DNA from: Candidatus Achromatium palustre
Lineage (GTDB): Bacteria; Pseudomonadota; Gammaproteobacteria; Chromatiales; Chromatiaceae
Direction of reading: 5' to 3'
Length of the DNA: 20,221 bases
Assembly: GCA_001044195.1 (NCBI GenBank)
Contig: LFCU01000241.1
Coordinates: 1 to 20,221 of the forward strand
The position numbers and the translations under genes are program-made. This document shows, in pieces, positions 855-15,398 of the stretch; the first letter of the stretch is position 1; each line of letters starts with the position of its first letter. The notes beneath the pieces are model-generated. The model searched no databases. It was not told the origin of the DNA and was given only the letters and a program-made list of their open reading frames with translations.

Positions 855-1847
855 ATGCCTATAAATAAGTTACATTCTAATGAAGATGAATCATCAAATC
901 TATTCAAACAAGAAGATAATATATGTCGCCGTTCTGAAGAGATTATTAGAAATAAAACAGAAAACATAAGTAATGAAGAATATAGTCTGCTTGCCAAGAA
1001 TTATAAAAAATTACTTAAGCAGACCAAAAGACTGATTAGAATAGGCGACATGCAGCAACTAAAATTAGATCAGGCTAATAAGGAGCTATCTGAAAAAAAT
1101 CAACAAATTACTGATAGTATTTACTATGCTCGACGTATCCAACAGGCTATGCTACCGAGCAAGGACGCAACACAGGAAGCATTTGGCGAAAATGCCTTTG
1201 TTATCTATCGTCCGCATAGCATTGTTTCAGGTGATTTTTATTGGTTGACTCATACTGAACGAAAAATTTTGATTGCGGCAATAGATTGTACTGGACATGG
1301 GGTGTCTGGAGCGTTTTTGTCTATGATAGGGAATACCCTGTTAAACAAAATTGTCTTAAAAGATCGGATACATAATCCAGCACGTATCTTAGAACAATTG
1401 CATCGAGGAGTGCGTAGCGAATTACAACAAGAAACCGGAAATATTAGCGATGGTATGGATGTTTGTCTATGCTGCATTGATGGAATTAACGTAACCTTTG
1501 CTGGAGCCAAACGACCTTTATATTATTTTTCGCAGCAACAACTGCAAGAACTTAAGGGGGATCGGAAATCTATCGGTGGTCGTCAAAAAGAAGAACAACG
1601 CACATTTACCAATCAAGAAATTATATTGAATCCTGGCGATACCCTGTATCTAAGTAGTGACGGGATAGCTGATCAACCAAATCCACAGGGAAAAAGGTTT
1701 GGCTCCAGACGGCTGAAAGCACTGTTAAATGAGATAGCACCCTACTCAATGACAAAACAGGAACATCTAATTCGGATTCAGCTTGAAATGCACCAACAGG
1801 ACGAACTCCAACGGGACGATATTACATTACTTGGTGTCCGTGTTTAA
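855..1847 (+). CDS. PP2C/SpoIIE-family serine phosphatase with an N-terminal coiled-coil (SiaA/RsbU-like partner-switch phosphatase, 330 aa)
   Basis: PP2C/SpoIIE-like motifs are present: SGDFYW, AIDCTGHGVSGAF, LSSDGIADQ. The N-terminus is coiled-coil with heptad-like K/E/L-rich sequence. It is adjacent to the SiaB/SiaC-like genes. Confidence 0.85.
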   Translation: MPINKLHSNEDESSNLFKQEDNICRRSEEIIRNKTENISNEEYSLLAKNYKKLLKQTKRLIRIGDMQQLKLDQANKELSEKNQQITDSIYYARRIQQAMLPSKDATQEAFGENAFVIYRPHSIVSGDFYWLTHTERKILIAAIDCTGHGVSGAFLSMIGNTLLNKIVLKDRIHNPARILEQLHRGVRSELQQETGNISDGMDVCLCCIDGINVTFAGAKRPLYYFSQQQLQELKGDRKSIGGRQKEEQRTFTNQEIILNPGDTLYLSSDGIADQPNPQGKRFGSRRLKALLNEIAPYSMTKQEHLIRIQLEMHQQDELQRDDITLLGVRV

Positions 1848-1880
1848 CTTACAGATAGAGGAGGAATTGTGAATAATATT

Positions 1881-1907
1881 GGCAACCTTCATTTACAGTA
1901 AACACTT
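1881..1907 (-). repeat. Copy of a dispersed bipartite intergenic motif: Y-unit AAGTGTTTACTGT plus X-unit AAATGAAGGTTGCC, read on the minus strand
   Basis: The same X unit (AAATGAAG[GA][AT]TGCC) and Y unit (AGTGTAAACT-like) recur at 9102-9130, 9401-9433, 9521-9597 and 15134-15225. Confidence 0.5.
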
Positions 1908-1937
1908 GAGGGATTGTTCCTACGTTACTGTGGGTTA

Positions 1938-1948
1938 GGGGGGGGGGG
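1938..1948. repeat. Homopolymeric G11 tract (C11 on the minus strand)
   Basis: Eleven consecutive G in an otherwise AT-rich intergenic spacer. The spacer lies between convergent genes, with the phosphatase stop at 1847 and the small ORF stop at 1971. Confidence 0.9.
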
Positions 1949-1970
1949 TGTTCTATGCTACAAAACCTTT

Positions 1971-2219
1971 TTAACTATATTCTAAAACCGTATCCCACTG
2001 TTCAGAACTAAGCAAAGAATCTTCAAGATCAGATGAGTCTGTGTCATCGAAAAACACGGATGTATCCTCTCTAATTTCTGCATAAATGACTTTTAATCGT
2101 TCACGCTCAAAATCAAATTCGGATCGTATTGCATCTACATCAACTGGTAGTGTTGCATTGATATTGTTTTTTAACCAATTTTCAATATCTAGGCTGCGTT
2201 TTGTCCATTTATCAATCAT
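1971..2219 (-). CDS. Small acidic protein (82 aa), paralog of the ORF at 3153-3407. It is translationally coupled to the upstream MotB-like gene.
   Basis: Its start overlaps the MotB-like stop by ATGA (2216-2219). The first 30 aa are identical to the paralog, and the acidic S/T-rich tail DDTDSSDLEDSLL is conserved. No TM helix or signal peptide is present. Confidence 0.6.
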   Translation of the reverse strand: MIDKWTKRSLDIENWLKNNINATLPVDVDAIRSEFDFERERLKVIYAEIREDTSVFFDDTDSSDLEDSLLSSEQWDTVLEYS

Positions 2220-3109
2220 TGCGTTGTTCCCAAGGCTTTTTGGGGCTTATTCCTTTTGGTGAAGCGTAGTTCAATGCGTCTTCGAGAAGGGACGTTTTTA
2301 TTTTGGGCACCCTGCAATATGTTATTGTTTGGGGAAATAAGTTGTGATCCTGAGTAAACTCTAAAAACAAGTTGTTTTAAGCGTGGATCATTTGATCTTG
2401 CAAATATATTAAACAATGCTGCCGCAACAGATAAGGCGCGAGCTAGTCCGAGATCTGCATTTGAGCCAATTTGTAGTTGTCTAATCACGTTTGCTGATGT
2501 AGGTCCGAATTGAAAATTTCTTAATTTGGTATCCAGATTGGATGCTCTAGATCTTACTGGTATTCCATCAGTATGCCCTATAACTTCTATTACTTCGATT
2601 GGATAATCTTTAATGATAGCTAATATTTTGGGAACTATGTTTTGTTCTAAACGGCCTTCAAATTCAGGAGATACATTACTACTTCCAGATGTAAAAACAT
2701 AACCTGAAGCTTCTTGTAATGGAAATACTAAGGGCTTATCTGGCCTACGTTTTAATTCACCTTCTAAACCTTTAATGCGAGCTGTGTAATGGGATCGATA
2801 GGTTTGCAGTCTTTCTACTAATCTTTCTAATTCAGCCTCTAAAACTTGAATACGGTTTGCGCTATCTGTACGATTTGTTCTACAAGTTTGCAGTGTTTGT
2901 TCTAAATTTTCAATATTTTGTGAAGAATTTAATTGATGTCGAGTTAATTCTATTCCTAATCTTTTTATCTCTTGTTTTAATTTTTGCAGTATACCAAAAT
3001 GCATGGTATTATCCACCACCCATAAAATCAATACTAACATCAATATTGCTAAAATTAGATCTGTTAATGATGGCCAAAATGACACTTCATCTTTCTGTTT
3101 GTTAAACAT
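2216..3109 (-). CDS. MotB/ZorB-like stator subunit (about 298 aa). It has an N-terminal TM helix with a conserved Asp, an approximately 90-aa coiled-coil linker, and a C-terminal OmpA-like peptidoglycan-binding domain.
   Basis: The TM segment is LTDLILAILMLVLILW, with the D-x12-W spacing seen in MotB. The OmpA motif GHTDG...NxxLGLARALSVAAAL is present. The start was chosen at the internal Met (MFNKQKDEVSFWPS, ATG at 3109) by homology with the N-terminus of the paralog (MFRKYQEEVSFWPS). The 339-aa track ORF from 3235 would overlap the upstream small ORF. Confidence 0.75.
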   Translation of the reverse strand: MFNKQKDEVSFWPSLTDLILAILMLVLILWVVDNTMHFGILQKLKQEIKRLGIELTRHQLNSSQNIENLEQTLQTCRTNRTDSANRIQVLEAELERLVERLQTYRSHYTARIKGLEGELKRRPDKPLVFPLQEASGYVFTSGSSNVSPEFEGRLEQNIVPKILAIIKDYPIEVIEVIGHTDGIPVRSRASNLDTKLRNFQFGPTSANVIRQLQIGSNADLGLARALSVAAALFNIFARSNDPRLKQLVFRVYSGSQLISPNNNILQGAQNKNVPSRRRIELRFTKRNKPQKALGTTQ

Positions 3110-3152
3110 AAACAAGCATCCTGAATTGTTGTACCTAAAAATAGATAGCTTA

Positions 3153-3407
3153 TTACTGTAATTTGTATTCCAGTACCATGTCCCACTGTTCAGGATTAAG
3201 CAAAGAATCTTCAAGATCAGATGAATCGGTATCATCTAAAAAAACAGCCATATCACCTTCAATTGTTACATAAATATTTTCTAAACGTTCTAATTCGGTA
3301 TCAAATACATATCGCATTGCATCTACATCAACTGGTAGTGTTGCATTGATATTGTTTTTTAACCAATTTTCAATATCTAGGCTGCGTTTTGTCCATTTAT
3401 CAATCAT
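3153..3407 (-). CDS. Small acidic protein (84 aa), paralog of 1971-2219. It is translationally coupled to the upstream MotB-like gene.
   Basis: There is an ATGA start/stop overlap with 3404-4045. The N-terminal 30 aa are identical to the paralog, and the acidic tail DDTDSSDLEDSLL is conserved. Confidence 0.6.
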   Translation of the reverse strand: MIDKWTKRSLDIENWLKNNINATLPVDVDAMRYVFDTELERLENIYVTIEGDMAVFLDDTDSSDLEDSLLNPEQWDMVLEYKLQ

Positions 3408-4045
3408 TGCGTTGTTCCCAATACTGTTTGGGGTTTATTCCTTTTGGTGAAGCGTAGTTCAATGCGTCTTCGAGAAGGGACGTTTTTATTTTGGGCACCC
3501 TGCAATATGTTATTGTTTGGGGAAATAAGTTGTGATCCTGAGTAAACTCTAAAAACAAGTTGTTTTAAGCGTGGATCATTTGATCTTGCAAATATATTAA
3601 ACAATGCTGCCGCAACAGATAAGGCGCGGGCTAGTCCAAGATCTGCATTTGAGCCAATTTGTAGTTGTCTAATCACGTTTGCTGATGTAGGTCCGAATTG
3701 AAAATTTCTTAATTTGGTATCCAGATTGGATGCTCTAGATCTTACTGGTATTCCATCAGTATGCCCTATAACTTCTATTACTTCGATTGGATAATCTTTA
3801 ATGATAGCTAATATTTTGGGAACTATGTTTTGTTCTAAACGGCCTTCAAATTCAGGAGATACATTACTACTTCCAGATGTAAAAACATAACCTGAAGCTT
3901 CTTGTAATGGAAATACTAAGGGCTTATCTGGCCGGCGCATTGAAATATCTACTATCCATAAAATCAACACTAATAACAATACTGCTAAAATTAAATCTGT
4001 TAATGAGGGCCAAAATGATACTTCTTCTTGGTATTTACGAAACAT
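3404..4045 (-). CDS. MotB/ZorB-like stator subunit, short form (213 aa). The TM helix is joined directly to the OmpA-like domain, so it lacks the coiled-coil linker of its paralog.
   Basis: The TM segment is LTDLILAVLLLVLILW. The OmpA-like domain is nearly 100 percent identical to that of the paralog. The RRPDKPLVF junction follows immediately after the TM helix. Confidence 0.75.
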   Translation of the reverse strand: MFRKYQEEVSFWPSLTDLILAVLLLVLILWIVDISMRRPDKPLVFPLQEASGYVFTSGSSNVSPEFEGRLEQNIVPKILAIIKDYPIEVIEVIGHTDGIPVRSRASNLDTKLRNFQFGPTSANVIRQLQIGSNADLGLARALSVAAALFNIFARSNDPRLKQLVFRVYSGSQLISPNNNILQGAQNKNVPSRRRIELRFTKRNKPQTVLGTTQ

Positions 4046-4150
4046 AATGCTTTAATGAAATTATTAAGAATCACTATTAAATGATTTAATAGTTTGATTT
4101 ATAAATGTTTGTATATAATATTATATGGTTTATTGTATGAAATGTAGGTA

Positions 4151-5962
4151 CTACCCATTCCACCACTTAGATAATTTTGAACTTGAAACTTTAGTATTAG
4201 TCTGGTTTAGTACGTTAGAGAGATTTGCAATAGATACCTGCAATAACTTCATGTCATCATGGAAATTTTTATCGTATTGATGAGATGGGTTAGCACTACT
4301 TAACAATGAACCAATTTTTGTTTGCAATTCCGAAGCCATAGCATTTGCAAATACCGTTGGTAAATTTTGTAGAAGAGTTTGATGTAATTGTTGTTGAGTT
4401 GATATTGCGGTCTTAATTGCGCTGGAAAAATTGCGAAACTCGGTAATAAGGCTGGTATTATGTTGACTAGAAACGTTTGTACTATTTGCTAATGAATCAA
4501 GCTCCGCTTGTAACTTAGAAGTTATGGCATCTGCAATTATCATTGGTAGATCTTCTAACAGATTTTTAGTGTTTGCGGCTTCTGTCGTGACTGTATTTGA
4601 AAAATTGCTAAATTCAGTATTAAAGTTCGTTAGTTCCGTTTTCCATTGTACTGTAATGCTGTTTAACAATTTGCCATATTTATCAATGTTGCTAGTTGTT
4701 ACAGCTAAACTATCAATAACAGTTTGCAAGCTTTTAACTGAATTGGTTGCTTCCGTAGCAGTATCTAAGACAGATTTGGTTAAATTAGCTGTCTCCTGGT
4801 GCAAGATAAACAATTCTTTGTTTTGGGCAGTTGAAAGCTCTTGCATTTTTACTACAGCATCTTGTAATTGGGCATAACGCTGTTCTGCTGGACTAACCGC
4901 CTGATATAGTTTATCCATAGCTTGCAAAAAAGGGGCATTTGAGGCAACACTTTTATCGAAACGATTAGCTGCGGTATTAAGAGTATTTGCCGCTTGCCCT
5001 ATACTCTGTATAATTGGTGACAAAGCTGCTGCAAATTGGGTCATAGCATCTGTTGTATTTTGGGCTGATTTATTAATGGCTGCTATGGCACTATTGTTGG
5101 TATTATTGATGTTCTTAGCAGAAGTGTCAAAAGCATCAGACAATAGTTCACTTCCTATTGAAATTGTATCCATAAATTCAGTTATAGATTTATTAGTATT
5201 TGCAGCTAATTGGTTAATACCCGTTATGGCACTATCGCTTGTATTATTGATGTTTGTAGTATAAGTATCAAAGGCTTCAGATATTTCTTGGCTTTTTGTT
5301 GAAATAGTATCACCAAGTTTAGAGATAGATTCTTCGGTTTTTTCTGATTGAGTTTCTATTATTTTAATTTTATTGCTATCATTCCATGGAATTAAAACTT
5401 TGCTGGCAAAATTTACAAAATTTCGTGCAGCTATATTGTATGTAGGATCAAGCAATCCGAAGCGAATAGCCTGTAATATCAGCGTTGCAATGACTCCAAA
5501 GATGCTAGGCCAAAACGCACTAGTAAGTGCCTCTTGTAATTGTTGATAGGTATCTTGATTTATTCCCTCTGGAACAGCATAATGTAACGAAAATAAGGTA
5601 CCAGCGATACCACATAGCAACACTACTGAAATGGCATATCTTCTAATACCAATAAGAATCTTAATCCATAACTCATTTGGCTCAATAAGATCAATAGCCG
5701 CTTCTGGTGCATGATCAGTTGCCAAAATTCGATTAAATGCTGGTCTTAATGGGTGATTTTTTCCTATTTTGCGATCTAGCCAAGCTCGCATATTAGTAGG
5801 ATCAGTATTTCGTAAATCATATTCAAGATCTGCAATAACTTTGGACTGAGTATACCAAAACCGGATCTCCAAAATAAAACCAATAATAGCTGAAATACTT
5901 AAGATAGCTATTATTCCTATAAATATTATAGAAGCTGTAGACATGTTTAAAAGTATAGACAT
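4151..5962 (-). CDS. MotA/ExbB/TolQ-like membrane protein with a roughly 420-aa low-complexity helical C-terminal tail (603 aa). It looks like a ZorA-like motor subunit.
   Basis: It has three predicted TM helices in ExbB-like topology: residues 10-32, then around 100-125 (LLCGIAGTLFSL), then around 150-175 (IFGVIATLILQAIRFGL). The tail from about residue 190 to 603 is rich in N/T/S/A/Q, contains internal imperfect repeats (for example SxAFDTxxxNINNT), and has no TM. The gene sits directly upstream of two MotB-like genes and directly downstream of the kinase, with a 27-bp gap. Confidence 0.7.
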   Translation of the reverse strand: MSILLNMSTASIIFIGIIAILSISAIIGFILEIRFWYTQSKVIADLEYDLRNTDPTNMRAWLDRKIGKNHPLRPAFNRILATDHAPEAAIDLIEPNELWIKILIGIRRYAISVVLLCGIAGTLFSLHYAVPEGINQDTYQQLQEALTSAFWPSIFGVIATLILQAIRFGLLDPTYNIAARNFVNFASKVLIPWNDSNKIKIIETQSEKTEESISKLGDTISTKSQEISEAFDTYTTNINNTSDSAITGINQLAANTNKSITEFMDTISIGSELLSDAFDTSAKNINNTNNSAIAAINKSAQNTTDAMTQFAAALSPIIQSIGQAANTLNTAANRFDKSVASNAPFLQAMDKLYQAVSPAEQRYAQLQDAVVKMQELSTAQNKELFILHQETANLTKSVLDTATEATNSVKSLQTVIDSLAVTTSNIDKYGKLLNSITVQWKTELTNFNTEFSNFSNTVTTEAANTKNLLEDLPMIIADAITSKLQAELDSLANSTNVSSQHNTSLITEFRNFSSAIKTAISTQQQLHQTLLQNLPTVFANAMASELQTKIGSLLSSANPSHQYDKNFHDDMKLLQVSIANLSNVLNQTNTKVSSSKLSKWWNG

Positions 5963-5989
5963 GTTTATAAATAATCCCTAATTTATTAA

Positions 5990-7354
5990 TTATATCGAAT
6001 TTGTCATTGGTTCAATAGATACTCGCCCGTGTGCAAAGTCAAACGCCCTTACTCCTACAAACCGAAATGCGTGATTACGTTTACATCGTAGTTGCCTCCC
6101 AGAAGCAAGATGCACAATCCAGGTATCATTGCTTAAATTTTTGAGAGTCATCCCACGTTCTGGTGTCTCTTTTATTTCGGCCATTGGACGCTTAAATTGA
6201 AATTCCTGATTATCCAAATGGTGCTCATAGAGTTTGCGTCCATGAGTCGCTAAAATTTTAGTACCATTAGAAAATTTTAAATACCAACGTTTATTTGGAT
6301 GCTTGGTATCGCAAAATAGACATGTACAATTCTGATCGGAGATAAAAAAACGTTGGTGACAATTAGAGCATTCCGCCATACATTCCAACGCTTGCCAAAA
6401 TTCTCTAGCCCAAGTTGCCGCTGAATGGCGTTTTGTAGGATTTTTAAGCCCAATGGTGAATACTTGTTGAAATCTAGTTTGCATGGACTTTGGCAAATGA
6501 GCAAATGGAATACCATTAGTAGTAAAACGATTCCTACTATCTGTAGGATGTTCAGTAAAGATAGCACTAGTACCAAGTCCCTCATCTTCAGTCATGTAAT
6601 CCAAATTAAAATTCGGATCAACATCGCCTATAAATGGATGCCTAAACATGACTAAATAAAACAGTAGTACGGCCAAACTATGTCGATCCGTTTCCGCAGA
6701 TGGATGTGGATGTTGTGCTGTTATAAGCTCTGGTGCTCTAAAACCAGGAGTTCCAGCTACTTTTACTGGCAGATAGTTACTATTCCCACATGCAAGATTA
6801 TCGCAATCAATAAGACATATACTACCATCAGAGGTATTAAAAAATACATTACCCAAAGATAAATCGCAATGAGTCATCCCATGGCTATGAATCATCCGTA
6901 ACGCTTGCGAAAGGTAGAAGCCTGCTAATAAAAAATGATGATATTTATCATAATTGCTAAGTACAGAACGCAGGGCTGCACTTATAAATGGATTGGGTTG
7001 GTCATAAGGATCTGTAAGTAATGAATCGTGATTCAGTGGTTTACCTATCGCCAATTCCATTAGTACGCCAAATTCATTAGCAGAACTATATATAGCTCTG
7101 GGAAAGCAAACTTGGGCTTGGGGTAAAGTCCTGGCAATTTCTTTGGCAACATCGATGATTGTTTCTAGGCGTTCTTGCTGTTGATATAGTTCTGCTTGAG
7201 CGGGTAGTTTTTTAAATAATTTAAGGGCCATTTTATGGCTATCATGAGTGCGCTGGACTTGCCAGACATCAGCCTGTTGTCCAGAGCCTAGTGCAGCTTT
7301 ATACTTATATTCTTCGCCGTTAGTTGTAGTAAAGTTGGAGTTTTCTGTAGGCAT
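5990..7354 (-). CDS. Hanks-type Ser/Thr protein kinase (454 aa) with a C-terminal Cys-rich zinc-ribbon and an additional uncharacterised roughly 100-aa domain
   Basis: Kinase motifs are present: a G-loop LGSGQQADVW, the lysine in ALKLF, the catalytic loop HCDLSLGNV, a DFG-like DCD, and GTPGFRAPE. Cys clusters include CMAECSNCH and CTCLFCDTKH. Confidence 0.85.
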   Translation of the reverse strand: MPTENSNFTTTNGEEYKYKAALGSGQQADVWQVQRTHDSHKMALKLFKKLPAQAELYQQQERLETIIDVAKEIARTLPQAQVCFPRAIYSSANEFGVLMELAIGKPLNHDSLLTDPYDQPNPFISAALRSVLSNYDKYHHFLLAGFYLSQALRMIHSHGMTHCDLSLGNVFFNTSDGSICLIDCDNLACGNSNYLPVKVAGTPGFRAPELITAQHPHPSAETDRHSLAVLLFYLVMFRHPFIGDVDPNFNLDYMTEDEGLGTSAIFTEHPTDSRNRFTTNGIPFAHLPKSMQTRFQQVFTIGLKNPTKRHSAATWAREFWQALECMAECSNCHQRFFISDQNCTCLFCDTKHPNKRWYLKFSNGTKILATHGRKLYEHHLDNQEFQFKRPMAEIKETPERGMTLKNLSNDTWIVHLASGRQLRCKRNHAFRFVGVRAFDFAHGRVSIEPMTNSI

Positions 7355-7366
7355 GATATTAATAGG

Positions 7367-8272
7367 TTACAGATTGTAAAATACAGCTACCAGTGTTTTA
7401 TCATCATCAGAAAATTTATGTTCTTCCCAGTAATTACAATATGCTGTGGCATATTCTTCTAAAGCTACTGGATCATCTAAGCATTGTTTTAATTTTGGCC
7501 ATATAGCACTAAAATATAAGTTGGGATCGCCAATACTTTCACTCAGCCCATCGGTCATAAGGCAGAAACCTACACTATCTTTGTATTCAGTTATTCCAGG
7601 ACTTGACTCTGCAAAACCACGTTGCCATTCAGTGTTGGTTAACGGTCGAACTTCATTGACAAAGCCTTCACGTATATTTTCAGTTAAAAGCTGTGCTGCA
7701 ACTTTATCATCTGGTCTTGAAGAGATTTTATATATAGCACCATCTCCAACGATTGCTGCCCAGTAACCTTCAGAGTTTAAATATAGTAGTAATGCTGTTG
7801 TGGCGTATTCTGTTAAGTAGCCATCTACTAATGTTTGTGAAGATGTTTTTATATCCTGGGTATCATCTTTATTTTTATGACCAGTTTTATTTTGCTCGTT
7901 ATCTTCTTGGCATAATATTACAAACTTATCTCTAGCGTCAGTAAAGTAGTCTTTCAATTGATTGCTATTAAGAATACTTGTGCTTGCACCACTAAATACT
8001 TGACCCAGGGCAGTACAAGCACATTCAGCTCCTTTACGAGAGCGTGATCTGGTACTTACTCCATCTGCTACGGTTAGAGTCAGTGATTTAATATCATCTA
8101 CTTTTGTAGGTGTAGGCCAGTAAGCAGTAAAATCTTGGCATTCTGTACTTTGATCCACATGAGCTTTACCACGCCAAGAAAACGTTACAATTGCTATACT
8201 TTTGCCAGATATGTTGTAACGTTTAATTTTTGGAGGTATGCTAAAATGCTCAGAATTTAAATAAGCAGTCAT
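7367..8272 (-). CDS. PP2C-family Ser/Thr phosphatase (301 aa), the TerY-P phosphatase component
   Basis: Metal-binding Asp/Gly motifs are present: VADGVS, VGDGAIY and LMTDGLSE. It lies 8 bp after the vWA gene and 12 bp before the kinase gene. Confidence 0.8.
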   Translation of the reverse strand: MTAYLNSEHFSIPPKIKRYNISGKSIAIVTFSWRGKAHVDQSTECQDFTAYWPTPTKVDDIKSLTLTVADGVSTRSRSRKGAECACTALGQVFSGASTSILNSNQLKDYFTDARDKFVILCQEDNEQNKTGHKNKDDTQDIKTSSQTLVDGYLTEYATTALLLYLNSEGYWAAIVGDGAIYKISSRPDDKVAAQLLTENIREGFVNEVRPLTNTEWQRGFAESSPGITEYKDSVGFCLMTDGLSESIGDPNLYFSAIWPKLKQCLDDPVALEEYATAYCNYWEEHKFSDDDKTLVAVFYNL

Positions 8273-8279
8273 AGTGCTT

Positions 8280-8954
8280 TTAATTAACTAACTGAGTTCC
8301 AGGAATCTCACTTATGGGTCGTTTTTCTGAAATTTCTACTGTCAATGTCCTTAAATTTTTAAAAAAGCCACTGATAGTAGCTTGATCTTTCAGTCTAACA
8401 ATGTGCGATTTTTCTCTACCCTTATGGTAAAAGGCAGTTAAAACCGAATCGTTTATATCATCACCGGCTCCAGCAATTACTCTAATTCCAGCGACTCTAC
8501 CTGATGGTCTAGTGCCTATAAGAGGATTTTCATTCATAAGCTGTAATTGATCTTTCCAAGCTTGTTCGGAGCAATTAGGGTTACCATCGGTGATAAATAC
8601 AAATAATGGTTCTTTGCCTTTTTTTAATTCGTTTTTATTACGTTCTACTAATGCTAATACTTCTGCTAAACCTGCATCAAGGTTTGTGTATCCTGCTCCC
8701 ACTTCAATTTGAGGAATATCTATAGAGCCAATAGGTTGATGTTCAATGATAGTCTCAGCAATATCGCTAAAAGTTATCACCGATATAAAGACAGAATCAC
8801 GGGTATCTTCATTGCTTTGCAATTCTTCGATGTAATCACGAATGCCATTATTAGCCTGTTGTATACCAACTGGCTCCATACTATAAGATACGTCTACTAA
8901 CAATATAATGGGTATGGGTTTACGTGCAGTTGCACCATCTGGTATTTCAATCAT
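8280..8954 (-). CDS. TerY-like von Willebrand factor A domain protein (224 aa) with a MIDAS motif. It is the first gene of the operon.
   Basis: The MIDAS motif DxSxS is present as ILLVDVSYSM, with downstream FITDG. An AGGAA ribosome-binding site lies about 10 nt upstream of the ATG. An 876-bp AT-rich non-coding region lies upstream. Confidence 0.85.
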   Translation of the reverse strand: MIEIPDGATARKPIPIILLVDVSYSMEPVGIQQANNGIRDYIEELQSNEDTRDSVFISVITFSDIAETIIEHQPIGSIDIPQIEVGAGYTNLDAGLAEVLALVERNKNELKKGKEPLFVFITDGNPNCSEQAWKDQLQLMNENPLIGTRPSGRVAGIRVIAGAGDDINDSVLTAFYHKGREKSHIVRLKDQATISGFFKNLRTLTVEISEKRPISEIPGTQLVN

Positions 8955-9011
8955 GCTTTATTTATTCCTAATATATTACGACAAATAGTGGATTTCATTT
9001 TGTTTCTACTT

Positions 9012-9041
9012 ATTCTACATATTAATAGGCACAAAGATCAA
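9012..9041 (-). promoter_or_regulatory. Candidate sigma70-type promoter for the TerY-P/ZorAB-like operon (TTGATC-N18-TAGAAT on the minus strand)
   Basis: A -35-like TTGATC (reverse complement at 9036-9041) and a -10-like TAGAAT (reverse complement at 9012-9017) are separated by an 18-nt spacer, about 60 nt upstream of the vWA start codon. This was found by eye only. Confidence 0.25.
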
Positions 9042-9101
9042 CTACTTTCCAATTGCACTATAAAGGTCAAATTGTATTTGACACTATCTATATCAATTTT
9101 A

Positions 9102-9130
9102 GGGCATCCTTCATTTCTCAGTGTACAATT
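9102..9130 (-). repeat. Copy of the dispersed bipartite X/Y motif (reverse complement: AATTGTACACTGAG-AAATGAAGGATGCC)
   Basis: Its X unit matches AAATGAAGGATGCC at 9539-9552, and its organisation matches 1881-1907 and 15189-15225. Confidence 0.5.
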
Positions 9131-9400
9131 TATAGATTGGTTATATTTTTAGCATTCTTTATCAATACCTCGATGCTCAAAAGTTAGAAAACGCTTATAT
9201 ACTTAGATATGTTGACATTACATATTTTAATTAGATTTTTACTTGATTAGCTCTACTCAATATTGTATACGTTCTATCCTGTAGAAGCCTTATAGCTTAA
9301 GTAATTAAAATATTACCTAATACTAACTTTTGAACATCAAGAATGCTGATGCGAATATCCTATTTCCAATTCAAAAAGTGGGCATCATTCACCAACACCC

Positions 9401-9433
9401 AAAAGTAGTTTACACTTTAAGAAGGATGACGAC
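9401..9433 (-). repeat. Y-unit (AAAGTGTAAACTACTTT, reverse complement) plus a degenerate X-like unit (GAAGGATGAC). It forms a 17-bp inverted repeat with 9556-9572.
   Basis: AAAGTAGTTTACACTTT at 9401-9417 is the exact reverse complement of AAAGTGTAAACTACTTT at 9556-9572. Confidence 0.5.
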
Positions 9434-9520
9434 AAGTAAAATAAATTTTTTCTTAACTTGAAACATCTGATATATAAACACTTTTTAGAAATAAAAAATA
9501 TTTTCAATTTTTAATGTCCT

Positions 9521-9597
9521 TAAAAAGTGTTAACCGACAAATGAAGGATGCCAAAAAGTGTAAACTACTTTGTAGACGGAAATAAAGAATGCCACGA
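9521..9597 (+). repeat. Cluster of X/Y motif units: a Y-like unit, X (CAAATGAAGGATGCC), Y (AAAAAGTGTAAACTACTTTG), then an X-like unit (AAATAAAGAATGCC)
   Basis: The units were read directly from the sequence. They sit in the 876-bp intergenic region between the vWA gene and the second SiaB-like gene. Confidence 0.5.
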
Positions 9598-9720
9598 TTA
9601 AAATTGGATATGATTTCTTCCCCAATTATAACTTTATGCTTATTAAACAGGGAGAGGTTTTTAAATAATATCTAATGTTACAAATTTAATTTGGAAAAGT
9701 AGAATTTCTTAACAGAACAA

Positions 9721-9786
9721 TATAATGCGCATTAAACTTGATATGCACCAACGGGATGATATCACATTACTTGGTGTACGTATTTA
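9721..9786 (+). pseudogene. Relic 3' end of a PP2C/SpoIIE phosphatase gene (encodes MRIKLDMHQRDDITLLGVRI-stop). It is an imperfect direct repeat of 1771-1847.
   Basis: It is about 85 percent nucleotide identical to the last roughly 25 codons of the phosphatase gene at 855-1847 (IRIQLEMHQQDELQRDDITLLGVRV-stop). It carries a 15-nt in-frame deletion flanked by CCAAC microhomology. The final 35 nt are 31/35 identical. Confidence 0.6.
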
Positions 9787-9831
9787 AATATAGATAAAGA
9801 TTACCATAAACTTAAAATAGAGACAAAAATT

Positions 9832-10386
9832 ATGGATAATTTCGATGTTTTCGAATTTTATCAATTTATGCAAAGACAAAATGTGATTCTATCCTTCAAG
9901 GGAGAAATGTCACAGCAAATACTGGTTAATATTGGTGATTTATTGAAAGAAAAATTAGCATCTGAAGATACGGAAAAACAGGTCACTAAAAAAGTATTCT
10001 TCATTTTCGTTGAATTGGCGCAAAATATTCACCGTTATTCCGCTGATCGAGGCATTGAAGATAAAAAACGAGCAGGTACAGGTGTGTTATTTGTTAAAGA
10101 ATCTGCCAATTATTTCACAATTTTTGCTGGCAATAGAGTTGCTCCTCTGGAAGCAAAAGTGACCACCGAGCAATGTTTGGCAATTAGCCGATTAACGCCA
10201 AATGAACTGAAGCTATATTATAAAGAACAACTAAAACAACCGCGTGAAGATGAAACCTCTGGTGCTGCTGGTCTTGGACTTATTAGTATCGTCCGTAAAG
10301 CCGAAAACCCAATTGTTGCGTATACTATAGACATTGATACCAATGAAACTTTTTTGGTACTATCAGTTCAAGTGAATAAGGAATAA
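9832..10386 (+). CDS. SiaB/DUF6272-like histidine-kinase-like ATPase (partner-switch Ser/Thr kinase, 184 aa)
   Basis: The sequence has a GHKL-type N-box-like stretch (ELAQNIHRY), a G1-like stretch (TGVLFV) and a G2-box (GAAGLGLI). It is followed 4 nt later by a SiaC-like gene. Confidence 0.8.
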   Translation: MDNFDVFEFYQFMQRQNVILSFKGEMSQQILVNIGDLLKEKLASEDTEKQVTKKVFFIFVELAQNIHRYSADRGIEDKKRAGTGVLFVKESANYFTIFAGNRVAPLEAKVTTEQCLAISRLTPNELKLYYKEQLKQPREDETSGAAGLGLISIVRKAENPIVAYTIDIDTNETFLVLSVQVNKE

Positions 10387-10390
10387 ACCA

Positions 10391-10780
10391 ATGCAAGATC
10401 TAAAGATTGTTGGCACAAAAGATACATTAACCGTAAATTTTATAGTAGAATCTGGTATCTTGACATTGAAAGGAGCCTCTTATCCAGAAAATCCTGTTAA
10501 TTTTTTTGATCCGCTCTATACATGGATTACAACATATACACAAGAAATCCATAATACATTAACCGTGAATATGACGATTAATTATGTGAATACTAGTTCA
10601 TCTAAATGCTTACTTGATTTTTTAGAATTACTGGAAAATTATCATAATTCAGGCGGAAAGATTACGCTTAATTGGTACTATGAAGAGGATGATGAAGACA
10701 TGTTAGAGTGTGGTGAAGAATTGTGCGAAGATCTAAAGCTGCCCTACTCAATGATTCCAATTGTTGGGAATCCTGAATAA
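10391..10780 (+). CDS. SiaC-like DUF1987 partner-switch phospho-protein (129 aa)
   Basis: It has the LKGASYPEN motif and an acidic C-terminus, and is paralogous to 341-730. Confidence 0.8.
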   Translation: MQDLKIVGTKDTLTVNFIVESGILTLKGASYPENPVNFFDPLYTWITTYTQEIHNTLTVNMTINYVNTSSSKCLLDFLELLENYHNSGGKITLNWYYEEDDEDMLECGEELCEDLKLPYSMIPIVGNPE

Positions 10781-10956
10781 TTCGTATTTTATAGGATTTA
10801 CGCACTGATAACATAATCTTCCCGTATTTTGATGTAACTGTTTATAAAAATATAGAAATATTGTAAATTTTTATTTATCAATGCATAAATCCGATATTAT
10901 ATCTACCCGAAACCGCAAATTTAGCGAGTTACGTTAAACGTAATTCTTCTTAGTAG

Positions 10957-10981
10957 TAGGGTGCGCAATGCGCACCCTACC
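10957..10981. terminator. Perfect palindromic hairpin (11-bp GC-rich stem GTAGGGTGCGC, loop AAT) between convergent genes. It may act as a bidirectional terminator or RNA-stability element.
   Basis: GTAGGGTGCGCAATGCGCACCCTAC is a perfect palindrome. It lies between the SiaC-like stop at 10780 and the caspase-Sel1 gene stop at 11245. No strong T-tract follows on either strand. Confidence 0.4.
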
Positions 10982-11074
10982 TGGATTAATTATTTAGGAT
11001 ACTACGATAATGAATACGGTGTGGTTGATTTGCGTCATTACCTAAACGACTTTGACGATCCTGTTCATAACCCA

Positions 11075-11218
11075 TAGGATGGGTAGAGCGAAGCGAAACC
11101 CATCAAATCCATCTCATAATCTATTACGCCCAAAGTTTTTTGTCATTACTTTGGATTGATGTAAAGGTTGCAAATATAATTTTTGAATGATGGGTTTCGC
11201 TTCGCTCTACCCATCCTA
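11075..11218. mobile_element. MITE-like element of about 144 bp, with 30-bp perfect terminal inverted repeats (TAGGATGGGTAGAGCGAAGCGAAACCCATC) and an 84-bp AT-rich core
   Basis: Positions 11075-11104 are the exact reverse complement of 11189-11218. The core has its own 7-bp stem (CCAAAGT...ACTTTGG) and no ORF. It lies 27 bp downstream of the caspase-Sel1 stop codon. Confidence 0.5.
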
Positions 11219-11244
11219 CCGTGCTATGCATTTTAAATGCCTAA

Positions 11245-14200
11245 TTATTGCTTTATAAGTTTTTCGAGTTTTTCTACCTCATTCTTTGCGTTAGTATGTC
11301 CCTGAGCAGCAGCCTTTTGGTACCACTTTAGAGCCTCTTTGTAATCTTGAGTGACTCCGTCGCCATTGTCATACATAACGCCAATATTGTATTGCGCATC
11401 AGCATCCCCTTGAGCAGCAGCCTTTTGATACCACTTTAGAGCCTCTTTGTAATCTTGAGGTACTCCTTGGCCATTGTCATACATAAATCCAATCTGTAAT
11501 TGTGCATTAGCATTCCCTCTAGCAGCGGCCTTTTGAAACCACTTTAGAGCTTCTTTGTAATCTTGAGATACGCCTTGGCCATTTGCATACATAAATCCAA
11601 TATAAATTTGAGCATCAGTATGTCCCTGAGCAGCAGCCTTTTGATACCACTTTAGAGCCTCTTTGTAGCTTTGATGGACTCCTTGACCATTGTAATACAT
11701 AAGACCAATATTGTATTGCGCACCAACATTCCCTTGAGCAGCGGCCTTGCGATACCAATTTAGAGCCTTTTTATAATCTTTAGGCACTCCTTGTCCATTT
11801 GCATACATAACACCAATATTGTATTGCGCATACGCATCACCTTGAGCAGCAGCTTTTTGAAACCATTTTAATGCTTGATTGTAATCTTGAGGTATACCCT
11901 TGCCACTAAGGTATATATCACCTATCCCATTTTGTGCATCGGCATTACCTTGATATGCGGCTTTATTCCACCACTCTAATGCATCCGCGTAGTTTTGATA
12001 TATTCCTTGGCCACTGTAGTACATAAAACCAATATTGTATTGCGCATCAGCATTCCCTTGAGCAGCGGCCTTGTGATACCACTTTAGTGCCTCTTTATAG
12101 TCTTGAGGTACGCCTTGACCGTTGTGATACATAACACCAATATTGTATTGCGCATTAACATACCCTTGAGCAGCGGCCTTTTGATACCACTTTAGAGCCT
12201 CTTTGTAATTTTGAGGTACTCCTTGGCCATTGTAATACATAAGACCAATATTGGATTGCGCACCAACATTCCCTTGAGCAGCAGCCTTTTGATACCACTT
12301 TAGAGCCTCTTTGTAATTTTGAGGTACTCCTTTACCAATGTTATACAGGGCACCAATATTGCTTTGTGCTTTAGCATTCCCTTGAGCAGCAGCCTTTTGG
12401 TACCACTTTAGAGCCTCTTTGTAATCTTGAGATACGCCTTGGCCATTTGCATACATAACACCTATCCCATTTTGTGCATCGGCATTACCTTGAGCAGCGG
12501 CCTTGTGATACCACTTTAGTGCCTCTTTATAGTCTTGAGGTACGCCTTGACCGTTGTGATACATAACACCAATATTGTATTGCGCATTAACATACCCTTG
12601 AGCAGCGGCCTTTTGATACCACTTTAGAGCCTCTTTGTAATTTTGAGGTACTCCTTGGCCATTGTAATACATAAGACCAATATTGGATTGCGCACCAACA
12701 TTCCCTTGAGCAGCGGCCTTGCTCCACAATTTGAATGCCTCTTTGTAGCTTTGAGGAACACCTTTACCCAAAGCGTACATCAATCCAATATTGCTTTGTG
12801 CTGTAGCATTCCCTTGAGCAGCGGCCTTGCGATACCAATTTAGAGCCTCTTTGTAATCTTGAGATACGCCTTGGCCATTTGCATACATAAATCCAATCTG
12901 TAATTGTACATTAGCATTCCCTTGAGCAACAGCCTTTTTATACCACTTTAGAGCCTCTTTGTAATTTTGAGGTACACCTTGGCCATTGTAATACAGCCCA
13001 CCAATATTGTATTGCGCACCAACATGCCCTTGAGCAGCAGCCTTTTGGTACCACTTTAGAGCCTCTTTGTAATTTTGAGGTACTCCTTGGCCATTGTGGT
13101 ACATCCAACCAATATTGTTTTGAGCAGATTTAAGTCCTTGAGCAGCAGCTTTGTGGAACCATTTCAAGGCTTTTTTGTAATTTTGAGTTACATTTTTGCC
13201 AAGATAATAAGTAATGCCAATATTAAATTGCGCATTAGCATATCCTTGAGCTGCTGCTTTATGAAACCATTTTAGAGCCTTCTTAGGATCTTTAGGTATA
13301 CCTTTACCATCACGATACATAACACCAATATTGTGTTGCGCCTCAACATGACCTTGAGCAGCAGCTTTGCGATACCAATTTAGAGCTTCTTTATAATCTT
13401 TAGATACACCTTGGCCATGGTGGTACATCCAGCCAACACCGACTTGCGCAATAGCATCACCTTGAGCAGCAGCTTTGTGGAACCATTTCAAGGCTTTTTT
13501 GTAATTTTGAGGTACACCTTGGCCATTGTAATACAGGCTACCAATATTGTATTGCGCACCAACATCTCCTTGAGCTGCTGCTTTATGAAACCATCTAAGA
13601 GCTTCTTTGTAGTCTTTGGTTACGCCTTCACCATTGCGGTACACCAGACCAATATTGTTTTGTGCTCTAGCATTTCCTTGGGCTGCTGCTTTGTGATACC
13701 ATTTAAGAGCTTCTTTGTAATCTTTGGCTACGCCTTCACCTGAACTATAAGCAATGCCGACAGCATTTTGTCCGTTACTATTATTTTGCGCAGCAGACAG
13801 ACGAAACCATTTCAATGCCTCTTTAGAATTCTGGGCTACGCCTAGCCCCATAGCATATATTTTACCAAGCTCATATTGAGCTTCAGCATCACCGTGAGCT
13901 GCTGCTTTGCGATATTTTTTTAGAGCCGCTGCTTGATCTTGGGGAGAACTTGAAGAATTATCCTCATGTTTCGGAGCCTCTAACTTTGCTAGTTTTAATT
14001 CCATACTCGCTGTTGTGGCCTTAAACTGTTGCTGCATCTGTTGCATACGTGATTCTAACTGCTGACGCTGTTGGCGTTCGGCAGCTAGTTGAGATTGTAA
14101 TCTAGCAACTTGCGGATTTTCTACAACTGGTGGGCTGGAGAGATACAGGGCATCTTCTAAAGAGGAAGAATCCCAAGGGATTTGAAAGCCTCTGGTCTCT

Positions 14201-15090
14201 TGCTTTACATCCTTACGTACCTTACGCAGAACAAACTGAATATCCCCTGGAGTATTGATATATTTGAGGAGATGCTTGGTAAAAGTACCATTACGACCAT
14301 GACCATCCTCAGCTACACTATTAGGACTCGTTGCATAGACTAATAGAGTATCCGATGGAGTATTCATCCTTGCCAAACCTGAACGCATTCTCCGGCCCTT
14401 GACACCACGGCTTAAAAATGGATTATTACGACAGGCATCTAAAAAAACTATTTTAGTTTTGGCCGCTTTAATCTTAATCAATAATTGACTGGCACGAATA
14501 GCTTGGCGTTCGATTTGATCTTCACGCTTAAAATACGCATCTACTGGTAATAGATAATTTTCGCCCTTGACCTGAACACCATGTCCTGAATAATAGACTA
14601 AAGCTATATCACCAGCCTGTAATTGCAGACCAAAATTATGGATCGCATCATCCATCTCTAACAACTTGGCATCTTTGAGCAATGCAACTTTAAAACCTAA
14701 ACCTTGCAAGGCATTGCTCATATCCTCGGCATCGTTAGCTGGATTTAATAATGGCGGTAAATCACTCGGCATGGCACTGTAGGCTGAATTACCGATTACC
14801 AGAGCCATACGGCGACTGGTAACTCTTCCTAATGCTTTAGTTTGGGTAGGTTTGGTAACAGGAGGCTTATTGGCTATAGCACCAGAATCACCAGTATTTC
14901 TGGTAGCTATTTTGGTAGCTATTGGAGTAGATTGTTTAGGCTTGCTAGCAACTATAGTACTAGGTTTTTTAGTATCTTTAGTAAACAGATTATTGTTGCA
15001 GCCAGTAATCAATAGAGTTAGGCCGATGCTACATAGCCATAATGGCCATGCAGACAACTGGAGAGTTTTAATTAGTTGTTTTAGAAACAT
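11245..15090 (-). CDS. Large lipoprotein (1281 aa) with four parts: signal peptide and lipobox, a caspase-like peptidase C14 domain, a coiled-coil, and about 25 Sel1-like repeats
   Basis: The N-terminus MFLKQ...LLITGCNNN ends in an LITGC lipobox. The caspase His/Cys dyad is present in YYSGHGVQ and VFLDACRNNPF. A Q/R-rich coiled-coil occupies about residues 320-390. A 36-aa Sel1 consensus (AQYNIGVMYxNGQGVPQDYKEALKWYQKAAAQGN) is repeated through to the C-terminus. Confidence 0.85.
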   Translation of the reverse strand: MFLKQLIKTLQLSAWPLWLCSIGLTLLITGCNNNLFTKDTKKPSTIVASKPKQSTPIATKIATRNTGDSGAIANKPPVTKPTQTKALGRVTSRRMALVIGNSAYSAMPSDLPPLLNPANDAEDMSNALQGLGFKVALLKDAKLLEMDDAIHNFGLQLQAGDIALVYYSGHGVQVKGENYLLPVDAYFKREDQIERQAIRASQLLIKIKAAKTKIVFLDACRNNPFLSRGVKGRRMRSGLARMNTPSDTLLVYATSPNSVAEDGHGRNGTFTKHLLKYINTPGDIQFVLRKVRKDVKQETRGFQIPWDSSSLEDALYLSSPPVVENPQVARLQSQLAAERQQRQQLESRMQQMQQQFKATTASMELKLAKLEAPKHEDNSSSSPQDQAAALKKYRKAAAHGDAEAQYELGKIYAMGLGVAQNSKEALKWFRLSAAQNNSNGQNAVGIAYSSGEGVAKDYKEALKWYHKAAAQGNARAQNNIGLVYRNGEGVTKDYKEALRWFHKAAAQGDVGAQYNIGSLYYNGQGVPQNYKKALKWFHKAAAQGDAIAQVGVGWMYHHGQGVSKDYKEALNWYRKAAAQGHVEAQHNIGVMYRDGKGIPKDPKKALKWFHKAAAQGYANAQFNIGITYYLGKNVTQNYKKALKWFHKAAAQGLKSAQNNIGWMYHNGQGVPQNYKEALKWYQKAAAQGHVGAQYNIGGLYYNGQGVPQNYKEALKWYKKAVAQGNANVQLQIGFMYANGQGVSQDYKEALNWYRKAAAQGNATAQSNIGLMYALGKGVPQSYKEAFKLWSKAAAQGNVGAQSNIGLMYYNGQGVPQNYKEALKWYQKAAAQGYVNAQYNIGVMYHNGQGVPQDYKEALKWYHKAAAQGNADAQNGIGVMYANGQGVSQDYKEALKWYQKAAAQGNAKAQSNIGALYNIGKGVPQNYKEALKWYQKAAAQGNVGAQSNIGLMYYNGQGVPQNYKEALKWYQKAAAQGYVNAQYNIGVMYHNGQGVPQDYKEALKWYHKAAAQGNADAQYNIGFMYYSGQGIYQNYADALEWWNKAAYQGNADAQNGIGDIYLSGKGIPQDYNQALKWFQKAAAQGDAYAQYNIGVMYANGQGVPKDYKKALNWYRKAAAQGNVGAQYNIGLMYYNGQGVHQSYKEALKWYQKAAAQGHTDAQIYIGFMYANGQGVSQDYKEALKWFQKAAARGNANAQLQIGFMYDNGQGVPQDYKEALKWYQKAAAQGDADAQYNIGVMYDNGDGVTQDYKEALKWYQKAAAQGHTNAKNEVEKLEKLIKQ
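11270..13910. repeat. 108-bp tandem DNA repeat of about 24 units encoding the Sel1 repeats, with higher-order near-identical 432-bp (4-unit) duplications
   Basis: For example, 12049-12290 is near-identical to 12481-12722 (offset 432). The protein shows a 4-repeat block duplicated almost verbatim (NVGAQSNIGLMYYNGQGVPQNYKEALKWYQKAAAQGYVNAQYNIGVMYHNGQGVPQDYKEALKWYHKAAAQGNADAQ occurs twice). Confidence 0.85.
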
Positions 15091-15133
15091 TATTAATCTT
15101 CTTTTGATAGTAAAATTTCTCTATAGATATAAA

Positions 15134-15225
15134 GGTGTCCTTCAGTTTACACTTTTTTTATCGTTCCCACGCTCTGCGTGTGAACGATTAGTGTAAAGTA
15201 CTGTTGAAGACAAATGAAGAATGCC
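15134..15225. repeat. Two copies of the X/Y motif in inverted orientation in the caspase-Sel1 gene upstream region. 15134-15158 is the reverse complement of AAAAAGTGTAAACTGAAGGACACC, and 15189-15225 reads TAGTGTAAAGTACTGTTGAAGACAAATGAAGAATGCC.
   Basis: The motif was read from the sequence. GTTTACACT at 15147-15155 and AGTGTAAAG at 15190-15198 form an inverted pair. The X unit CAAATGAAGAATGCC matches 9538-9552 and 9581-9594. Confidence 0.5.
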
Positions 15226-15398
15226 GATATATAGTTAAGAATTGTGCCAATTATCCAACAGATATGACACTTGGCTGATATACATCAGTGAAAATATTTT
15301 AGTCTAGTCTACTACAATAGTACAAAATTGTAAATTTTTTTGAGATCATACCCACCTTACATGTCTAATGTCCATTTAGAACTTCATTTGCAAAAATT

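Follow-up and report, generated by a model that had tools for sequence, protein, structure and literature searches.

Well-known MITEs (miniature inverted-repeat transposable elements) of bacteria, for example Correia in Neisseria, RUP in Streptococcus pneumoniae and Nezha in cyanobacteria, have been linked to IS630/Tc1-like transposases and to TA duplications. The repeat family described here, defined by two short boxes, X and Y, lies in contig LFCU01000241.1 of Candidatus Achromatium palustre, the whole 20,221-nt stretch of which is referred to here as the window (GC content 37.7%), and we compare it both with such MITEs and with insertion sequences (IS) of the IS256 family. The terminal inverted repeats (TIRs) of IS256-family elements are bipartite and carry a conserved subterminal TGTAAA, their targets are AT-rich, and the family member ISCth4 generates 8-bp target-site duplications (TSDs) (PMC7780238). 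The ISCth4 transposase has the catalytic residues D175, D241 and E348, with a C262xxH265 motif at the start of an alpha-helical insertion domain (PMC7780238). In Thiohalocapsa PB-PSB1, MITE-like arrays near conflict systems have been tied to structural variation between strains, and such arrays have replaced functional parts of diversity-generating retroelements (PMC10907252). We conclude, with a probability of about 0.9, that the X/Y repeats are the ends of non-coding MITEs left in intergenic DNA by divergent, unannotated IS256-like IS, and that they are selfish rather than regulatory. MITEs and IS256-like elements are themselves well known; the X/Y family seems to be undescribed, and a literature search with its terminal sequences returned primer noise only and nothing relevant.

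An earlier note on this DNA had reported X and Y as separate units at five loci. All five loci are present where it had placed them, and both boxes occur far above chance: X (AAATGAAGGATGCC) has five matches in the window with at most two mismatches (at 1881, 9103, 9539, 9580 and 15212) vs. 0.18 expected, and Y (AAAAAGTGTAAACT) has four at the same threshold (at 9407, 9522, 9553 and 15144) vs. 0.42 expected, with 0 of 100 shuffles reaching five for X and 0 of 100 reaching four for Y. The boxes are not separate units, however; every copy is instead a single oriented unit that reads, from inside to outside, subterminal box Y (AAAGTGTAAACT), spacer and terminal box X (ATGAAGGATGCC), the last base of X being the tip of the element. 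There are seven such units in the window, and minus-strand units are always followed by plus-strand units, so that X is outermost in each pair. The order Y', X, Y, X' that had been read at 9521-9597 does not hold, since all four boxes lie on the plus strand and make up two adjoining ends, C (9522-9552) and D (9553-9593), while the locus at 9401-9433 is real and is now explained by a seventh end, G (9381-9418), on the minus strand.

The units come in two forms, which differ in the distance of Y from the tip: 26-27 nt in the short end (S; AAAGTGTAAACTGnnnnATGAAGGATGCC) and 35-36 nt in the long end (L; AAAAGTGTAAACTACTTTT-n8-ATGAAGGATGCC). Profiles of the two forms, built solely from other genomes, recovered the window ends: B (9103-9131, minus strand; E=5.5e-5), C (plus strand; E=1.6e-7) and E (15134-15157, minus strand; E=0.016) with the S profile, and G (E=6e-8), D (plus strand; E=6.7e-6) and F (15190-15225, plus strand; E=1e-3) with the L profile. 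The remaining locus of the earlier note, 1881-1907, is present as end A (minus strand), but it is the weakest end of the seven, with E=1.3 (1.3-4) against the S profile. The window copies have decayed to some degree, their X boxes carrying 0-2 mismatches and several of their Y boxes differing from the 12-nt consensus AAAGTGTAAACT at up to ~3 positions. The window matched no Rfam family and showed no tRNA, and a plasmid collection gave no match to it, the stretch 9380-9600 giving AT-rich noise only.

The same ends occur in many other genomes. In large collections the bare 14-mer X gave random single matches, and a bipartite pattern of 22 bases had to be used; when one genome per species was scanned with AAAGTGTAAACT-N(0-20)-RAAGRAYRCC, for which we estimate ~23 chance matches, bipartite ends turned up in at least 117 contigs, and the viral collection gave 0 matches to the bipartite pattern. 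Among the matches listed, the hosts are mostly Thermodesulfobacteriota, chiefly Desulfobacterales (Desulfonema magnum, Desulfamplus, Desulfococcaceae HSG2/8/9 and SEEP-SRB2), and further include Thiotrichaceae, Cocleimonas, Methylomonas, Methyloprofundus, Sedimenticola and Campylobacterota. Copy numbers reach at least seven loci each in E20SeepSRB2 and GMC6.concoct.177 and at least five in HSG2. Nearly all matches contain the full consensus GAAGGATGCC; similarity stops exactly after ...GATGCC and the inner side is conserved within subfamilies, which identifies that base as the tip of a mobile element. Many matches lie at contig ends, as repeats that break assemblies would give.

Target-site duplications accompany these ends. 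Among the matches listed, the ends form inverted pairs ~100-533 nt apart with X outermost, and the 8-bp flanks matched (at most one mismatch) in 52 of 452 candidate inverted pairs vs. three when the flanks were shifted by 8 nt, zero when they were shifted by 16 nt and three in the reverse-complement control. The duplicated sites share the logo S-AAA-TTT-S and have a GC content of 26% vs. 45% in the surrounding loci. Paired ends with identical 8-bp flanks thus point to MITEs made by a transposase whose cuts in the target are staggered by 8 bp. When partners were sought by looser criteria, nearly all ends in the loci proved to be paired within 600 nt, so that full-length parents are rare, and no shared transposase was found beside solo ends in the 117 loci listed.

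A strict rule governs which ends are combined. One L end and one S end were found in 49 of the 49 elements typable at both ends (of 53 that are TSD-flanked), with no L+L and no S+S combination, and the window pairs follow suit: G(L) with C(S), E(S) with F(L), and B(S) with D(L). The extra 9 nt of the L end produce a conserved 5-6-bp stem, AAAGT/ACTTT, around the loop GTAAACT (AAAGT-GTAAACT-ACTTT hairpin). A longer, element-specific extension of this stem is seen in ~30% of elements vs. 10% expected from swapped flanks, which is suggestive of an extension that is not general, with only the 5-6-bp core stem being conserved. The 17-nt inverted repeat reported earlier is exact (arms 9402-9418 and 9555-9571; 0 expected), and it is the L-end hairpin region of ends G and D.

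The window thereby resolves into three small elements plus a solo end; each of them is intergenic and shows some decay. The first, complete element is a 92-nt MITE at 15134-15225, with an S-type end of very short form (E) and an L-type end (F), 44 nt upstream of the start codon, at 15090, of a caspase-Sel1 gene. Its 8-bp TSD (left GATATAAA at 15126-15133, right GATATATA at 15226-15233) matches at 7 of 8 bases, and at the orthologous site of Achromatium sp. WMS3, a strain whose contigs are 97-98% identical to the window DNA and whose proteins cluster with the window proteins at 90% identity or more, some being identical, the same MITE sequence is flanked by a perfect TSD (TATATATC left and right). 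The MITE strand folds as a hairpin (-15.9 kcal/mol, z=-4.5), and the very short S form of end E (AAAGTGTAAACTGAAGG..., 22 nt) has three counterparts in locus L143.

The centre of the 92-nt MITE (15161-15192) is a copy of a palindrome, CGTTCCCACGC-NNN-GCGTGGGAACG, that we also found in at least 120 metagenome stretches (L246-L365; median GC 61%). Among the matches listed, it is often paired there 80-110 nt apart, with inner GACGCTCYGCGTC palindromes, and an X-like box lies near 1 of 141 copies. The central palindrome is a different, very widespread repeat family captured inside the 92-nt MITE. Related GC-rich palindromes (TTCCCAGGCAGAGCCTGGGAA and GTCCCGTAGGGAC) stand beside the L end in other subfamilies (L156, L160 and L165).

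The second complete element, a 172-nt MITE at 9381-9552 (L-type end G, S-type end C), is nested in the third. Its TSD is perfect (AAAAAGTG at 9373-9380 and 9553-9560), and since the duplicated 8-mer belongs to end D's Y box, the 172-nt element must have inserted into another copy; excising 9381-9560 restores a normal L end, ...AAAAAGTGTAAACTACTTTGTAGACGGAAATAAAGAATGCC. The outer MITE (9103-9593; S-type end B, L-type end D) measures 311 nt after removal of the nested element and one TSD copy. The solo end A, a decayed S-type end on the minus strand, comprises X' at 1881-1894 (one mismatch) and a Y'-like box at 1897-1907, and directly beside it, at 1848-1880, lies what remains of a siaB-like 5' end. 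The spacer 8955-9831 contains only open reading frames (ORFs) of 20-54 aa, and no transposase or similarity to one was found anywhere in the window. A nested insertion with a perfect TSD in the Y box of another copy records past mobility; the window copies are best read as old insertions or relics, probably immobile today. Their intergenic position would reflect selection against insertions in genes and tolerance of those between genes, and they are best read as not being functional signals of the neighbouring operons. The suggestion of 'decayed small MITEs', one of several offered in the earlier note, is thus borne out by inverted ends, 8-bp TSDs, the nesting of one copy in another, and full-length parents that share these ends.

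Those parents came to light through an unpaired L end, at position 3162 of locus L128, that is followed by a truncated ORF with the C-terminus ...SSAMVECINSIIRPYLN...HNHRRY.... This ORF has no Pfam or NCBIfam match, and it has many 'hypothetical' homologues on short contigs, which reveal the full element. In a 1913-nt parent (L242, 2805-4717), S and L ends enclose an intact 529-aa gene; a 1892-nt parent (L241, 1188-3079) has both ends around a frameshifted gene (302+251 aa) and a TSD matching at 6 of 8 bases; L240 and L128 hold partial copies whose L end lies just past the stop codon of the gene. Overall, the L end is downstream of the stop codon in 4 of 4 copies and the S end upstream of the start in 2 of 2 full-length copies. 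The small elements are internal-deletion derivatives of this 1.9-kb IS, in which a short end, a gene for a 529-aa putative DDE transposase and a long end follow one another.

Several side observations concern these parent loci. The DDE_Tnp_1 (ISAs1-type) ORF beside the L128 end was considered as the parent and rejected, as it is part of another IS, one that has a CAGGG end; this IS (DDE_Tnp_1_assoc and DDE_Tnp_1 domains; L128 3732-4855) is inserted into the parent copy of a Desulfamplus metagenome-assembled genome (MAG). At L240, a Tn3-family transposon occupies the place where the 5' half of the parental transposase gene is expected, and that half is missing; the genomes with L128 and L240 are dense in nested mobile elements. 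In the split gene of L241, the 302-aa and 251-aa ORFs overlap in the -1 frame by 22 nt (2196-2217). Several database entries likewise contain a 251-aa ORF, while most relatives have a single 529-aa ORF, and the candidate explanations for the split are a recurrent frameshift mutation and programmed frameshifting.

The 529-aa transposase has more than 500 cluster representatives, mostly of exactly 529 aa, typically on contigs of ~2 kb and with no functional name, and distant relatives on Acaryochloris plasmids are likewise annotated as hypothetical. PF00872 (Transposase_mut, Mutator family) was matched by 32 of 37 members at E<=0.01 (best E=1.1e-7), and for four members an assignment to PF00872 is precomputed. 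In the alignment, D162, D216 and E453 are invariant and D237xxH240 nearly so, the latter lying 21 residues after the second D (D216), the same spacing as from D241 to C262xxH265 in ISCth4. Judging from this conservation, D162, D216 and E453 would be the catalytic residues. Residues 238-442, between the DxxH motif and E453, are confidently modelled by AlphaFold as all-helical, and in this model the segment fits an enlarged insertion domain. Weakly but consistently, the protein comparisons point to a parent that is a divergent IS256-like (Mutator-superfamily) IS.

How the small elements moved can be sketched from this parent and from its described relatives. A full-length copy would have provided the transposase in trans; on the model of what is known of IS256-family biochemistry, in particular that of ISCth4, the protein's N-terminal domains would bind box Y and its catalytic domain would be placed on terminal box X. 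Insertion into AT-rich DNA, with staggered cuts 8 bp apart, would leave the 8-bp duplications, and the route was probably copy-out/paste-in, as in IS256.

A number of observations weigh against the interpretation of the repeats as IS256-like MITEs, and we gather them here. Within the window, the outer element at 9103-9593 has no TSD, its flanks (aattttag and acgattaa) differ, and the pairing of B with D therefore relies on the one-long-one-short rule alone; a partner for end A was not found. In the sole orthologous comparison possible (15134-15225), the MITE is fixed in both strains. The census for Achromatium amounts to three elements and one end in 20 kb, with no further copies in ~5 kb of extra Achromatium sequence. 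The L242 parent lacks a TSD. Family scores are marginal, P0266 reaching 20.5 bits vs. the Pfam cut-off of 21 and the frameshifted L241 orfA (302 aa) 16.8 bits vs. the cut-off of 150 for NCBIfam transpos_IS256 (NF033543). A profile search of Protein Data Bank (PDB) sequences gave no match to the transposase, and a Foldseek search of the PDB with the low-confidence AlphaFold model (mean predicted local distance difference test score 61.5, catalytic core <50) gave no meaningful match, the poor model of the catalytic core making this fold search uninformative. The element is also large, at 1.9 kb and 529 aa vs. the 1.2-1.5 kb and ~400 aa typical of IS256 and vs. the 1503 bp and 47-kDa transposase of ISCth4. 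Finally, TGTAAA here reads towards the tip, apparently opposite to its direction in ISCth4, which was deduced from the description of the junction promoter (PMC7780238). It is on account of the low NCBIfam score, the PDB sequence and fold searches without a match, the low-confidence catalytic core, the size and the direction of TGTAAA that we use the label 'IS256-like' rather than claim strict family membership.

A bolder reading is that the transposase and its elements make up a deep, unrecognised branch of the Mutator/IS256 superfamily (a new IS family or subgroup), defined by a helical insertion of ~200 aa, strictly asymmetric ends, a functional L-end hairpin and horizontal spread. We hold this bolder proposal to be tentative, with perhaps one chance in four of being right. 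Were it so, the L-end hairpin would serve, for example, to discriminate between donor and recipient ends during copy-out/paste-in, or would act as a terminator behind the transposase gene, and the hosts of the spread would be filamentous, multicellular or giant sediment bacteria (Desulfonema, Desulfamplus, Thiotrichaceae and Achromatium).

A very different reading concerns the operon between ends A and B, and bears on how it came to be there. The window segment 1858-9747 (7.9 kb), which holds VWA, PP2C, Ser-Thr kinase, 603-aa and two OmpA-like genes together with ends A, B, G, C and D, is absent from WMS3 (L243) and from a Logan assembly (L244), where siaA is directly followed by siaB and siaC; no WMS3 protein matches the VWA and PP2C genes at 90% identity or more. 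Two stretches of the window, 55-1857 and 9748-10846, align to the WMS3 contig and overlap there by 49 nt, and the breakpoints of the segment fall in two directly repeated, imperfect 49-nt copies of the siaA 3' end (1809-1857, plus strand, and 9748-9796) that do not belong to the X/Y family. In a three-way alignment, the WMS3 junction is chimeric, left-like up to GGGAC and right-like from ATATC onwards, which points to homologous recombination between the two siaA-repeat copies; measured from the edges of the variable segment, the X/Y ends lie 23 nt and 154 nt further in. Ends A (S, 1881) and D (L, 9593) could nevertheless be taken to bound a single composite or cargo transposon of 7.7 kb that carried the operon to this site, possibly in an older event, given that they are correctly inverted with X outermost, that they combine one short and one long end as the family rule demands, and that the whole A-D segment is missing from WMS3. 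We consider this very improbable: no TSD brackets the pair (flanks ataatatt vs. acgattaa, 3/8), the WMS3 breakpoints sit 23 nt and 154 nt outside A and D, in the 49-nt siaA repeat and with a recombinant junction, end A is the weakest of the seven (E=1.3), and 0 of the 52 TSD-flanked elements of other genomes exceed 533 nt.

Three further observations on this region stand on their own. Decayed sia remnants accompany ends A and D, namely the siaB-like start region (1848-1880) by end A and two siaA-like 3' ends (9594-9675 and 9706-9787) to the right of D, and the spacer once held more tandem siaA-siaB-siaC units. Colinearity with WMS3 ends at window position 10846, beyond which L243 5216-5957 differs, a second structural difference between the strains. 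Within the operon, a 300-nt direct repeat (1978-2277 and 3166-3465, 86% identity) reflects the tandem duplication of a small ORF and the start of the two OmpA-like genes.

Still further from what we found is the proposal that the VWA/PP2C/kinase/OmpA operon and the caspase-Sel1 gene are controlled together by one transcription factor, with the X/Y boxes as its operators; the earlier note had suggested binding sites of a shared regulator of envelope and defence genes. Copies do lie upstream of both gene sets (9103-9593 before the operon start at 8954, and 15134-15225, 44 nt before 15090), and the 92-nt copy has the same sequence (100%) in both Achromatium strains, though the surrounding intergenic DNA is also 98% identical. 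Operators would not be expected to be flanked by TSDs or to be nested one in another, as these copies are, and the same ends are found in at least 117 contigs from several phyla, beside unrelated genes, where their similarity ends at the ...GATGCC tip and their target flanks are duplicated; they also bound a transposase gene. Moreover, promoter-like sites are not enriched around the copies (8 vs. 7.1 expected, and 3 vs. 1.9), and both spacing and orientation relative to the start codons differ at every locus. We therefore regard a regulatory role as hardly credible.

The least probable reading of all, that X/Y copies are site-specific or homologous recombination sites bounding an island (the 'recombination hot-spots' of the earlier note), draws on the presence of copies near both ends of the 7.9-kb variable segment and founders on the position of the breakpoints in the siaA 3' repeats (1809-1857 and 9748-9796) instead of in X/Y, on the location of all X/Y copies near the operon inside the segment, A and B among them in direct orientation, and on the lack of any integrase or recombinase gene in the segment.

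Two other repeat classes were ruled out. REP/REPIN sequences are short imperfect palindromes with no TSD and an associated RAYT gene; here no end as a whole is a palindrome, TSDs of 8 bp occur, and the parental transposase is of the DDE type and not Y1. The earlier remark that the repeats are not HIP1 stands, with 0 occurrences of GCGATCGC in the window, but its cyanobacterial premise was wrong, as the host is Achromatium, a gammaproteobacterium and one of the giant sulfur bacteria.

Elsewhere in the window, a perfect 31-nt inverted repeat, TAGGATGGGTAGAGCGAAGCGAAACCCATCA, with arms 82 nt apart at 11075-11218, lies just downstream of the caspase-Sel1 gene and constitutes a second, unrelated MITE-like element with no obvious TSD. 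The caspase-Sel1 gene itself (11245-15090) encodes a 1281-aa caspase (Peptidase_C14) protein that contains 24 Sel1 repeats, and its Sel1 array consists of very regular 108-nt tandem repeats, the copies being 60-91% identical. An 838-aa major-vault-protein-like gene (16046-18562; MVP shoulder and Vault_3 domains) has its closest relatives outside Achromatium at no more than 77% identity, the named ones being mostly Myxococcota MAGs, and this pattern of protein similarity suggests horizontal transfer of the gene.

For the window, reading the repeats as MITE ends removes a tempting false lead, in that they are neither a regulatory code that ties envelope and defence genes together nor the boundary of an island. 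The finding is an ordinary one for the window itself, which turns out to carry relics of selfish DNA, and the asymmetry of the ends and their spread among hosts will be mildly interesting for specialists in mobile DNA. Beyond the window, the analysis exposes an annotation gap, a widespread transposase that is labelled hypothetical everywhere we checked, is missed by NCBIfam and is marginal in Pfam, and MITEs of the X/Y family fragment the assemblies of Desulfobacterales and sulfur-oxidiser genomes. The S and L profiles can be used for masking, or as markers of horizontal exchange among co-resident sediment bacteria, and the strict one-long-one-short rule offers a clean natural data set on how IS256-like transposases distinguish their ends.

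Compared with known systems, the X/Y elements resemble bacterial MITEs in being non-coding, 90-530 nt long, intergenic and hairpin-capable, in having TIRs and TSDs, in occurring in several copies per genome (in the other genomes) and in sharing their ends with autonomous IS. Unlike Correia, RUP and Nezha, they have 8-bp TSDs and an IS256-like parent, and unlike other MITEs they have interiors that vary greatly between subfamilies, with only the ~30-40-nt ends kept across phyla, and strictly one long and one short end each. With the arrays of Thiohalocapsa PB-PSB1 they have in common short inverted repeats that match the ends of IS found elsewhere, a position beside vWA conflict loci, and a host range of large or multicellular sulfur bacteria (PMC10907252); the IS families and sequences are different, however, the Achromatium copies are intergenic, and the strain difference seen here came from recombination in a gene-derived repeat. 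From IS256 the parent element departs in its marginal sequence similarity, in its predicted helical insertion (~200 aa vs. 65), in the fixed 9-nt length difference between its ends and the conserved small hairpin of the long end, and in a transposase that annotation pipelines call hypothetical. It nevertheless agrees with IS256 in its 8-bp TSDs in AT-rich targets and in left and right ends that are imperfectly symmetrical, and with IS256 and ISCth4 in a D/CxxH motif that follows the second D at the start of a helical insertion, with the putative catalytic E beyond it. Its ends are bipartite, with a terminal and a subterminal box, the latter (Y) containing TGTAAA, though in an apparently inverted direction relative to the tip, and X and Y map onto the architecture of the IS256 TIR.

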